DNA of 64,000 bases from the NCBI RefSeq assembly GCF_036013445.1, contig NC_088282.1, forward strand, positions 133,631-197,630. The letters run 5' to 3'. The stretch comes from Caloenas nicobarica (Eukaryota). Shown one piece after another: positions 31,620-33,647 of this stretch. Below the pieces are notes generated by a model that saw nothing but the letters and a program-made list of their open reading frames with translations, made no database searches and had not been told where the DNA came from. Position 1 is the stretch's first letter; every line of letters begins with the position of its first letter. Made by a program: the position numbers and the translations under genes.

Positions 31620-33647
31620 GCGCGCCGGGACCAAGAATTTCCCCCCGTCGTTCATAACGAGGAAACGGGACAATTAGAGATTCAATTAACGAGCCCGCGG
31701 GGCCAATACGACCAGTATGACCAGTTCGACCAGTATGACCAGTACAACCAGTTCAACCCTGTAGGTGACACAGGGACCCGGGGGGGACGTTCCCGCCCCA
31801 AACCCCCAAATTCCGGCGATTTAGCCCCAAATTCCAGCAATTTAGCCCCAAATTCCCCCCGTTTTCCCCCCGATCCCTCCAGTTCCTCGCCCAGTTCCTC
31901 CCAGTTTCCTCCCAGTTCCTCCCAGTTTCCTCCCAGTTCCCACGTCCCCCCAAATTCCCCCGTTTCCCTCAATTTTCACCCCGATTTCCCCCCCAGTTCC
32001 CCCATTGATTCCCCCAGTTCTCCCAGTTCTGACCCCAATTTTCCCCCCAGTTTCCCCCCCATTAATTCCCCCAGTTCCCCCAGTTCCGACCCCAGTTCCA
32101 CCCCCAATTTCCCCTCCAGTTCCCCCATTAATTCCCCCATTTCTCCCCCAAATTCCTCTCCCAGTTCCCCCATTAACCCCCCCAGTTCCCCCAGTTTCTC
32201 CCCCGTTAATTCCCCCAGTTGCCCCATTAATCCCCCCGTTAATTGCTCCATTAATCCCCCCGGTTCCCCCCCAAATTTCCCCCCCAGTTCCCCCATTAAT
32301 CCTCCCAGTTCCCCCCCCAGTTCCCCCAGTTTCCCCCCCATTAATCCCCCCAGTTCCCCCATTAACCCCCCCAGTCCCCCCAGTTTCCCCCCCATTGATC
32401 CCCCCAGTTCCCCCATTAATCCCCCCAGTTTCCCCATTGATCCCCCCAGTTTCCCCCCCATTAATCCCCCCAGTTCCCCCATTAACCCCCCCAGTCCCCC
32501 CAGTTTCCCCCCCATTGATCCCCCCAGTTCCCCCATTAATCCCCCCAGTTTCCCCATTGATCCCCCCAGTTTCCCCCCCATTGATCCCCCCAGTTTCCCC
32601 CCCATTAATCCCCCCAGTTCCCCCATTAACCCCCCCAGTCCCCCCAGTTTCCTCCCCATTGATCCCCCCATTGATCCCCCCAGTTTCCCCATTAACCCTC
32701 CCATTGATCCCCCCAGTTCCCCCATTGATCCCCCCAGTTTCCCCCCCATTGATCCCCCCCTTGACCCCCCCGCGTTCCCCCCCATGCCCCGCCCCCTCCC
32801 CAAGCCCCGCCCCCCCGCCCTCCCCGCCCCTCTCCCATTGGCCGCCGCCCTGGCCGCCCTCTGGCTCCGCCCCTCCCTGCCCCTCCTCTTCCTCTTCCTG
32901 TTCCTCTTGCTCCTCCCCCGCGGGGGGCGTGGCCGGGCGGGGGGCGGGGCCGTGGGCGTGGCCTTGGCCTTGACCCTCCCGGCCCCGTTTTGGCGCTTCG
33001 GGGCCGTGACCTTGGCCTTGACCGGGGGGGTTTTGGGGCTCCTGGGGTTCCCCCCTCCCCGCGCTCGCGCTTACGCCCCCGTTTTCCTCTTGGCCGCCCA
33101 ATTTTTCCTCTTCCCGTGGCTCTTTTTGGCGCTTTATTTAGCCGGCTTGGGGGGCCGGGGGGTTTTGGGGGGCGCCGGGGGGCGGAACCGACTCCACCGC
33201 TGGTTATTCCGGGGGGTCCTCGCTTTACCCCCCCCGGTTTTCCGCCTCTTGTCCCGTTTGGGTTTCGTCAGCGAACGGCGATTTTTTCAATTTTTCCCCC
33301 GGGCTAAAAAAACGGGATTTCGGTCCCGTTTGCCCATCCCCCGCCGGGGACCCCCCCCGCCCCCCCGCCCCTCCCCCAACGCCTCTGGAGCCGCGTCCGG
33401 CGCTTCCTGGGGGGGAGGGGGGGGCGGGGGGGGGGGCGGGGGGGGGAACCCCCCAGCCGGATCCCCCGCCCCTCCCCCCGCCCCCCCCGAACCCCCCCGA
33501 GCGGGGGAGGGGGGGGGGGGAGGGGGGCGAAGGGGGGCGGGGGAGGGGGGAGGGGAACGGCCCCGCCCCCCCGCAAACCCTGGAGGTGACGCCGGCCCCT
33601 CCCCCCCACCCCCCCGCCGTGTTCTGGGGGAAAAATTGGGGAAATAG
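31620..33647 (+). CDS. TAOK2: Putative TAOK2 long terminal exon (isoform-1-like tail). It contains a proline-rich coding minisatellite and a multi-hydrophobic tail.
   Basis: One open frame runs from the acceptor cag at 31617-31619 to TAG at 33645-33647. The distal part reads LLFLFLFLLLLP...AVTLALTGGVLGLLGF...FFPRAKKTGFRSRLPIPRRGPP. This matches the human TAOK2 isoform-1 tail LLLLLLPLLAAQ...YPKTNKDGFRSRLPVPGPRRRNP. The proximal part FPPVVHNEETGQLEIQ is only weakly similar to human SSIIHRLPGSDNLYDD. An internal donor cct|gtaggt at 31761 could mark an alternative boundary. The coiled-coil exons that belong between here and 29445 were not found. Confidence 0.4.
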   Translation, partial: ARRDQEFPPVVHNEETGQLEIQLTSPRGQYDQYDQFDQYDQYNQFNPVGDTGTRGGRSRPKPPNSGDLAPNSSNLAPNSPRFPPDPSSSSPSSSQFPPSSSQFPPSSHVPPNSPVSLNFHPDFPPSSPIDSPSSPSSDPNFPPSFPPINSPSSPSSDPSSTPNFPSSSPINSPISPPNSSPSSPINPPSSPSFSPVNSPSCPINPPVNCSINPPGSPPNFPPSSPINPPSSPPSSPSFPPINPPSSPINPPSPPSFPPIDPPSSPINPPSFPIDPPSFPPINPPSSPINPPSPPSFPPIDPPSSPINPPSFPIDPPSFPPIDPPSFPPINPPSSPINPPSPPSFLPIDPPIDPPSFPINPPIDPPSSPIDPPSFPPIDPPLDPPAFPPMPRPLPKPRPPALPAPLPLAAALAALWLRPSLPLLFLFLFLLLLPRGGRGRAGGGAVGVALALTLPAPFWRFGAVTLALTGGVLGLLGFPPPRARAYAPVFLLAAQFFLFPWLFLALYLAGLGGRGVLGGAGGRNRLHRWLFRGVLALPPPVFRLLSRLGFVSERRFFQFFPRAKKTGFRSRLPIPRRGPPPPPRPSPNASGAASGASWGGGGGGGGGGGGNPPAGSPAPPPAPPEPPRAGEGGGGGGRRGAGEGGGERPRPPANPGGDAGPSPPPPRRVLGEKLGK
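31800..32780 (+). repeat. TAOK2: Proline-rich coding minisatellite of about 30 bp inside the open reading frame of the putative TAOK2 tail exon.
   Basis: Repeated ccccccagttcccccattaatcccccagtt encodes PPSSPINPPSFP-type peptides. Confidence 0.7.

Follow-up and report, generated by a model that had tools for sequence, protein, structure and literature searches.

A 64 kb stretch of contig NC_088282.1 of the Nicobar pigeon, Caloenas nicobarica (assembly GCF_036013445.1, positions 133,631 to 197,630; hereafter the window, whose own numbering is used throughout), carries a TAOK2-like gene on its plus strand. A repeat array in this gene is probably a translated, in-frame composite coding minisatellite within a terminal exon of the TAOK2-alpha type, a reading to which we assign, from the sequence, a probability of roughly two-thirds. 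It is favoured because the repeats are spaced only in multiples of three (3n), the flanking sequences are in the same frame, the tail of the exon is conserved, four other birds carry repeats with 3n periods, and the equivalent tract of Vidua is annotated as coding sequence. An earlier note on this DNA had claimed a coding minisatellite. The in-frame 3n array, continuous with a splice acceptor and with the tail, agrees with that claim and the comparative evidence favours translation, but the RefSeq gene model excludes the array. The parts of the exon are as follows.

31620..33647, plus strand: proposed TAOK2-alpha-type terminal exon, comprising head, repeat tract and hydrophobic tail (675 codons plus TAG)
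31703..31758, plus strand: 9-bp coding microsatellite (CCAGTAYGA)n, encoding QYDQYDQFDQYDQYNQFN, six copies by Tandem Repeats Finder; within the annotated coding sequence and present in the RefSeq protein XP_065511397.1
31803-32781, plus strand: composite tract, found by Tandem Repeats Finder as stacked, overlapping arrays
31803..31940, plus strand: older, degenerate 21-bp repeats, with PNSGDLA/PNSSNLA in 2.5 copies at 31804-31856 and SSSQFPP in three copies at 31879-31940
31970..32781, plus strand: main array of 21/24-bp units (INPPSSP, IDPPSFPP, INPPSPPSFPP and others), from Tandem Repeats Finder and unit parsing
32781..33350, plus strand: hydrophobic tail of the TAOK2-alpha type, with motifs PWLFLxLY, LPPPxF, SER and FPxxxKxxFRSRLP 
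33346..33385, plus strand: stretch of C-runs (C8/C7/C4/C5), where the conserved C-terminus leaves frame 0
33368..33589, plus strand: conserved C-terminal segment in frame +2 relative to FRSRLPIP, with helix-like PLPQRLWSRVRRFL (PLPQRLW...), SRIP at 33455-33466, and ...RKPWR followed by TGA at 33575-33589

Tandem Repeats Finder resolved the tract into rows with periods of 21 bp (22.9 copies) and 120 bp (4.3 copies, 84% matches, score 624), and also of 45, 33 and 12 bp. The basic units are 21 bp long (ATTAATCCCCCCAGTTCCCCC, encoding INPPSSP) or 24 bp long (ATTGATCCCCCCAGTTTCCCCCCC, encoding IDPPSFPP), and a further common unit of 33 bp (ATTAACCCCCCCAGTCCCCCCAGTTTCCCCCCC) encodes INPPSPPSFPP. Parsing at ATT[AG]A[TC] anchors gave 25 units with 16 distinct sequences. 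The higher-order unit of 120 bp (40 aa) includes copies at 32346-32465 and 32466-32585 that differ at 1/120 bases (99% identical). The older repeats at 31879-31940 are built of alternating 10- and 11-bp subunits, which sum to 21 bp. The coordinates given for the array by the earlier note hold, while its period of about 30 bp is replaced by units of 21 and 24 bp with a 120-bp higher order. Its proline-rich (PPSSPINPPSFP)n product is a fair summary of the approximately 330 encoded residues, which comprise 40% P, 25% S, 8% N, 8% I, 7% F and 5% D, have hardly any K or R, and include 29 Ser-Pro sites.

All spacings between CCCCAGT anchors (30/30) and between ATT[AG]A[TC] anchors (25/25) are multiples of three, and they take eight distinct lengths. 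The window contains 44 arrays of at least 400 bp, this one included, and the same spacing statistic was applied to the other 43. None of these reaches 100% 3n; the next best stands at 90%, and the others go down to 0, with most values close to one third. Length variants in all classes modulo 3, as in an ordinary satellite, do not occur in this array. Single tokens of C-run plus spacer measure 7–15 bp and are mostly not multiples of three, yet the spacings are, so that run lengths must co-vary; AGTT+C5, AGTTT+C7, AGTTT+C4 and AGT+C6 are examples of tokens that sum to 9 or 12. The seven unique, diverged older units (24–66 bp) are also 3n, so the rule is not merely a legacy of the recent 120-bp duplication. 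Intronic arrays of the same gene with base periods of 9 or 21 bp carry variants of 8, 17, 20, 26 and 41 bp.

These observations bear on an alternative in which the array is non-coding, a local satellite within the final intron (31758-35444) of a short transcript of TAOK2, its open frames and 3n register having come from C-rich composition and the 120-bp duplication. We consider this unlikely: the seven unique units and all eight lengths keep to multiples of three, which the control arrays with 9- and 21-bp periods do not. In repeat-dense, GC-rich regions of bird chromosomes, where an open reading frame means little, coding arrays can be told from non-coding ones by how their length variants behave modulo 3.

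Read from the canonical acceptor at 31620, the frame is free of stops for 675 codons until the TAG at 33645, and it joins both flanks of the array, so the claim that a frame is kept open across the array is confirmed. The exon head consists of 60 residues, ARRDQEFPP...QYDQYDQFDQYDQYNQFNPVGDTGTRGG, and contains the QYDQYDQFDQYDQYNQFN microsatellite, a second in-frame repeat of the exon, which is wholly missing from the rock pigeon, Columba livia (45-nt gap). The head had been described as the TAOK2-like N-terminal part of the exon; no similarity between it and the TAOK2 of other vertebrates could be detected, and it is assigned to TAOK2 by position and annotation only. The rest of that placement stands, since the gene is TAOK2-like and the array lies in frame before a hydrophobic tail. 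A Pfam scan of the 675-aa exon product matched no family. A gene on the minus strand was considered and rejected: the two open minus-strand frames over the array give G/N/I/T or G/L/M/K repeats, without flanking homology.

The tail reads ...PWLFLALYLAGL...LPPPVFRLLSRLGFVSERRFFQFFPRAKKTGFRSRLPIP in the same frame as the array. Hydropathy places hydrophobic blocks at exon residues 400–438, 459–479 and 485–517, the first beginning about 10 residues past the repeat. An index-free phmmer search with the 190-residue tail against 1.84 billion representative proteins returned four matches. The best (P0121, E 5e-18) begins ...QQPKSLK/VG..., the alpha junction (slashes mark exon boundaries here and below where they separate flanking sequences); the next are a TAO2-like protein of Vidua chalybeata (XP_053789227.1, E 4e-17) and TAO2 isoform X1 of the caecilian Geotrypetes seraphini (E 4e-11, residues 828–1032 of 1132). 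The fourth (P0124, E 2e-4) is a repetitive protein of 287 aa and was set aside as irrelevant. A word-indexed search with the tail alone gave nothing, probably with its list saturated by low-complexity words, and this negative was discarded because the index-free search did find TAO2 tails. An alignment of six tails contains 28 invariant columns, including P[WY]LFLxLY, LPxPxF, SE[RK] and FPxxxKxxFRSR[LI]P. Given these matches and invariant motifs, the predicted tail is a TAOK2-alpha tail, homologous by sequence to the endoplasmic reticulum (ER) membrane anchor of vertebrate TAOK2-alpha. In human TAOK2-alpha, six predicted transmembrane helices in this region anchor the kinase in the ER, and beyond the anchor lie an amphipathic helix and then a microtubule/EB-binding C-terminus with SxIP (PMC8699727). 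Between Caloenas and Columba, differences in the tail fall at codon positions 1/2/3 in numbers of 43/30/58 (p=0.011). The non-coding alternative is therefore faced with a tail whose protein sequence is conserved between caecilian and birds and which lies in frame with the array, and with the lack of a strong acceptor between the two, where only a weak AAG (32803-32804) is found.

The rock pigeon locus is collinear with the window. A comparison of the array between species, proposed in the earlier note, showed that both its length and its units differ: the array of Columba is about 450 bp long, against about 980 bp in Caloenas, and consists mainly of 9-bp CCCATTGAT-type units (PIDPIGPIH...; PID/PIG/PIH) with a 63-bp higher-order unit and 0% indels. 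Indels between the exon heads of the two pigeons measure 3, 45 and 12 nt; the 45-nt indel is the (QYD)n 9-bp microsatellite, and the 12-nt indel lies downstream of the donor used in RefSeq. In Vidua, Pezoporus and Indicator the tail ends an open reading frame of 432–542 codons that opens with a low-complexity linker of lineage-specific repeats, and Columba has a like architecture of linker and tail, bar frame breaks at homopolymers. The linker periods are 9/63 and 21/45 bp in Columba, 21/42 in Vidua, 18/36/60/72 in Pezoporus and 21 in Indicator, almost all 3n; the other periods reported belong to a 46-bp row in Columba, over its frame break, and to arrays of 20 and 31 bp that lie immediately before the exons. 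In RefSeq isoforms X1–X4 of Vidua chalybeata (up to 864 aa), the annotated coding sequence runs from the kinase and the acidic exon through some 300 aa of P/S/Q/N repeats into the tail. A Haemorhous protein (P0126) that was also inspected is a short read-through isoform only and is silent on the linker. A literature search for TAOK2 in birds combined with GC-richness found no papers.

In the honeyguide (Indicator), the open reading frame at 28999-30609 has a charged linker with 21-bp repeats (HRTAPEG...; 29512-29584). Its C-terminus is fully in frame (...SRIPRL...ALPPWR and stop), making it the best-preserved bird copy among those compared.

The host gene was identified from its kinase-domain pieces (20420-28138), which when joined gave as best match in a protein collection the RefSeq protein XP_065511397.1 (99% identity), a 457-aa 'serine/threonine-protein kinase TAO2 [Caloenas nicobarica]'. 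Pfam Pkinase matches the kinase domain of the window over its full length (E 6e-59), and because this domain is intact the TAOK2-like gene looks functional, as far as sequence can tell. The junctions of XP_065511397.1 are canonical in the window (28147/GTGGGT, cag/29266, 29445/GTGAGC and cag/31620). The TAO-family kinase and the terminal exon lie on the same strand and belong to one gene, the RefSeq model joining 29445 to 31620. The features of the gene outside the repeat and tail are these.

20420..28147, plus strand: kinase-domain exons of the TAOK2-like gene, the last ending ...PGPQ/GTGGGT at 28147; located by tblastn with caecilian TAO2
29266..29445, plus strand: Ser-rich/poly-Asp (acidic) exon, ...SHWPPSASVSASSSSSGASAANDDDDGDDDDDDDDGDNEERPPLAAQQPP, bounded by cag/ and /GTGAGC; exact match to XP_065511397.1
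31618..31619, plus strand: AG of the 3′ splice site, tttttcccccaatttcag/GCG, which opens the large terminal exon in phase 0; junction in XP_065511397.1 ...AAQQPP/ARRDQEF...
31758..31763, plus strand: donor GTAGGT used by XP_065511397.1, CCT/GTAGGT, a 6/9 match to the consensus by our own reading
35445..35498, plus strand: 17-aa terminal exon of the RefSeq model, GPDAEPRAMSQWGARNG and stop, resembling units of the 35.6-38 kb satellite

Several observations weigh against translation of the array, and they are gathered in this paragraph and the next. XP_065511397.1, the only public model for the species, splices 31757/31758 to the 17-aa exon at 35445-35498 and treats 31758-35444 as an intron, and most bird RefSeq models end shortly beyond the acidic exon. 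Of the six frames over the array, four are open (two plus, two minus), many neighbouring arrays are open in several frames, and since composition suffices for this, an open frame by itself carries no evidence of coding. The 120-bp copies are near-identical, so that many units do not count as independent and some of the 3n signal has been inherited. The exon head and repeat, searched by word index against a protein collection of 5.8 billion sequences, gave XP_065511397.1 as sole match, through the 46-aa head, and to judge from that search the collection contains no known protein with this repeat peptide. The non-coding alternative draws on the first three of these points. Splicing around 31760-32800 had been named beforehand as evidence that would tell against the coding claim, and the RefSeq model literally shows such splicing; the model itself is weak, however. 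It is discounted because its end exon is satellite-like, its donor matches at 6/9 and is not conserved, and it leaves the conserved coding tail unused. The end exon lies at the edge of the adjoining satellite at 35640-37968 (units GACCCAA...CCAATGGGGA), is in effect a copy of one such unit, and by its sequence looks like an artefactual way to close the open reading frame. The donor site reads CCC/GGAGGT in Columba, where the GT is missing, and the 12-nt indel just past it is itself 3n. A scan of the whole exon for donors found none at 7/9 or better, and splice prediction could not decide the matter.

The remaining adverse observations concern the two ends of the exon. In the head, differences between Caloenas and Columba are spread 13/13/14 over the codon positions, so that its amino-acid sequence is essentially unconstrained. 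At the other end, this assembly puts the helix, SxIP and PWR end in a different frame from the tail, which leaves open whether the assembly is in error or the exon is decaying. A small intron at 33346-33385 was considered as the cause of the frame jump and rejected, as the stretch has no GT. Columba, 2 nt longer at the C-runs, is shifted by +1, Vidua has a +1 shift at a different position, and Indicator and Pezoporus are in frame; either three assemblies contain homopolymer errors, or the jumps are genuine truncations that arose independently. The array is itself free of such breaks, which suggests that the assembly is reliable at runs of C4–C8 and makes the C-terminal discrepancy more puzzling. 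The Columba assembly has one frame break inside the array, which on reading the sequence sits at a C8 run at the array start, and three in the tail (+1, -2, +1; net zero), where the shifted frame encodes the conserved RAYAPVCLLAAQFLLFPWLFLACY. We read the Columba breaks as probable homopolymer errors.

Taken the other way, these frame breaks could mean that the terminal exon is a decaying relic in pigeons, in which the anchored isoform has been lost, satellite has invaded a dead exon and a short kinase-only isoform is the functional product. The out-of-frame helix/SxIP/PWR end of Caloenas, Columba and Vidua, the extra breaks of Columba, the absence of coiled-coil exons and a head that evolves without codon bias would all fit. 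A dead exon would not, however, keep 30/30 3n spacings or a 675-codon frame, the tail shows a 3>1>2 pattern of codon positions between the pigeons, and PWLFLxLY and FRSRLP are invariant across birds. The breaks all fall in long G/C homopolymer runs and differ between assemblies, a pattern that suits sequencing error. Decay of the exon is accordingly regarded as a doubtful explanation, with a chance of being right that we put well under that of the satellite in an intron.

Another arrangement would make the array an optional segment. Were the phase-0 donor at 31757 joined to the weak AAG at 32803-32804 (restart at 32805, phase 0), exactly 349 codons would be removed, and tail-bearing isoforms with and without the spacer could then coexist. 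Both sites are present and in the same phase, and the array forms one long polypyrimidine tract. AAG is the poorest acceptor of the YAG type, however, the donor is absent in Columba, and the stronger CCCCCCAG/ sites inside the array would, by our own reading, each shift to a frame with TAA/TGA stops. Being purely a reading of the sequence, alternative inclusion appears highly improbable.

If the array is a coding minisatellite, replication slippage and unequal exchange would keep expanding and remodelling the C-rich 21/24-bp units, which resemble the satellites filling this chromosome region, while selection would purge variants that break the frame or make stops. The surviving tract of about 330 residues, Pro/Ser-rich and with its 29 Ser-Pro sites, would be expected to be intrinsically disordered. 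It may serve in the cytosol as a spacer, evolvable in length, that separates the kinase and acidic region from the membrane anchor, taking the place of the non-repetitive acidic linker of caecilian TAO2. The linker of human TAOK2 is also non-repetitive and acidic. The tract is placed directly after the acidic exon since coiled-coil exons are not detectable.

A close parallel is provided by the Vidua TAO2-like proteins X1–X4 (XP_053789224.1 and related). Their gene likewise lies upstream of CDIPT and has kinase, acidic exon and one large exon without a coiled-coil, and in the large exon 21/42-bp repeats encoding about 300 Pro/Ser-rich aa precede the hydrophobic tail of TAOK2-alpha. The repeats themselves differ, being PQNPIFPPQNPVL/SPPDPNP in Vidua and PPSSPIN/PPSFPPID in Caloenas, with only short motifs (DPNFP) in common, and the tract is annotated as coding sequence in Vidua but as intron in Caloenas. 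Vertebrate TAOK2-alpha (human, and caecilian TAO2 X1) shares the TAO kinase domain, an alpha exon after a phase-0 junction, a disordered linker before a multi-pass hydrophobic region, and FPKTxKxGFRSR(L/I)P, SxIP and the PWR C-terminus. Unlike Caloenas, it has a non-repetitive acidic linker preceded by a coiled-coil of about 300 aa, which is not detectable in Caloenas; in the Caloenas assembly SxIP and PWR are out of frame.

Classical coding minisatellites, or variable-number tandem repeats (VNTRs), include those of MUC1, the salivary PRB/PRH proteins, DRD4 exon 3 and the heptads of the RNA polymerase II C-terminal domain, for which expression and copy-number polymorphism are proven. With these the array shares head-to-tail 3n units, higher-order structure, fast turnover between related species and a low-complexity, Pro/Ser-rich product. 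It differs in that it is known from sequence alone, in one haplotype, and in that its units resemble the surrounding non-coding C-rich satellites. On the favoured reading the array is a further, unannotated example among coding VNTRs in disordered linkers, a class already well known, rather than an element of a new kind.

If the array is translated, the public TAOK2 model for the species is truncated and lacks about 620 residues, including the membrane anchor that makes human TAOK2-alpha an ER–microtubule tether (PMC8699727), and the short TAOK2 models of other birds may share this truncation. The birds would then offer a natural series in which the spacer separating kinase and membrane anchor varies in length and composition, in a gene linked to human 16p11.2 neurodevelopmental syndromes. 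The main value lies in gene annotation in repeat-dense bird chromosomes and in a natural experiment in TAOK2 architecture.

In the window and at the loci of four other birds, a tblastn search with caecilian TAO2 detected the kinase exons and the tail; with residues ~330–1000, which include the coiled-coil, and the tail excepted, it found nothing in any of these, so that in the window the interval from kinase to tail exon (28147-31620) shows no coiled-coil exons. The Vidua RefSeq proteins also have no coiled-coil region. The ruff (Calidris pugnax, contig KQ482927.1, 15975-16229) carries a slowly evolving TAOK2 of the conserved type with a coiled-coil exon, which leaves two possibilities, loss of the domain in several lineages or the presence of two TAOK2-type genes in birds. 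It is a possibility, on sequence grounds, that the fast-evolving gene of the window is a paralogue and not the sole orthologue. Taking five neognath birds of four orders together, we tentatively suggest, as a scenario that has perhaps one chance in several of being correct in full, that the TAOK2 beside CDIPT and PAGR1 was rebuilt as kinase, spacer and anchor with loss of the coiled-coil. The spacer would consist of fast-turnover, lineage-specific in-frame minisatellites drawn from local C-rich satellites, the reach of the ER-anchored kinase would be an evolvable and possibly polymorphic length trait, and the ruff gene would represent either the ancestral state or a second paralogue.

The neighbours of the TAOK2-like gene in the window are as follows.

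11661-13161, minus strand: PAGR1-like exons, upstream neighbour
40819-44153, plus strand: CDIPT exons, downstream neighbour

PAGR1 and CDIPT also flank the locus in Columba, Vidua, Pezoporus and Indicator, a neighbourhood of the 16p11.2 type. Human PAGR1 and CDIPT lie near TAOK2 without being adjacent to it, and the order PAGR1 - TAOK2-like - CDIPT differs from the human order at 16p11.2.

About half of the window, which contains only A, C, G and T (no N) and has 58% G+C, is made up of tandem arrays. By composition alone, the non-coding arrays at 25179-26704, 28814-29264, 51279-51990 and 56304-56912 have no stop in all three plus-strand frames, the last of them in all six frames. A scan for AATAAA gave no plus-strand signal between 16.5 and 59 kb, which is uninformative because the counts equal chance. 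The intron between the acidic and tail exons contains a 1.6-kb satellite (29570-31159) with periods of 30/32 bp and a 156/312-bp higher order, and the corresponding interval of the rock pigeon is about 1.8 kb shorter, as calculated from alignment coordinates. The poly-Asp/Gly tract of the acidic exon also varies in length and pattern between the two pigeons while remaining in frame, reading DDDDGDDDDDDDDGDNEE in Caloenas and DDDDDDGDGDDGDDGDGDDEDEDEE in the rock pigeon (~23330-23540).

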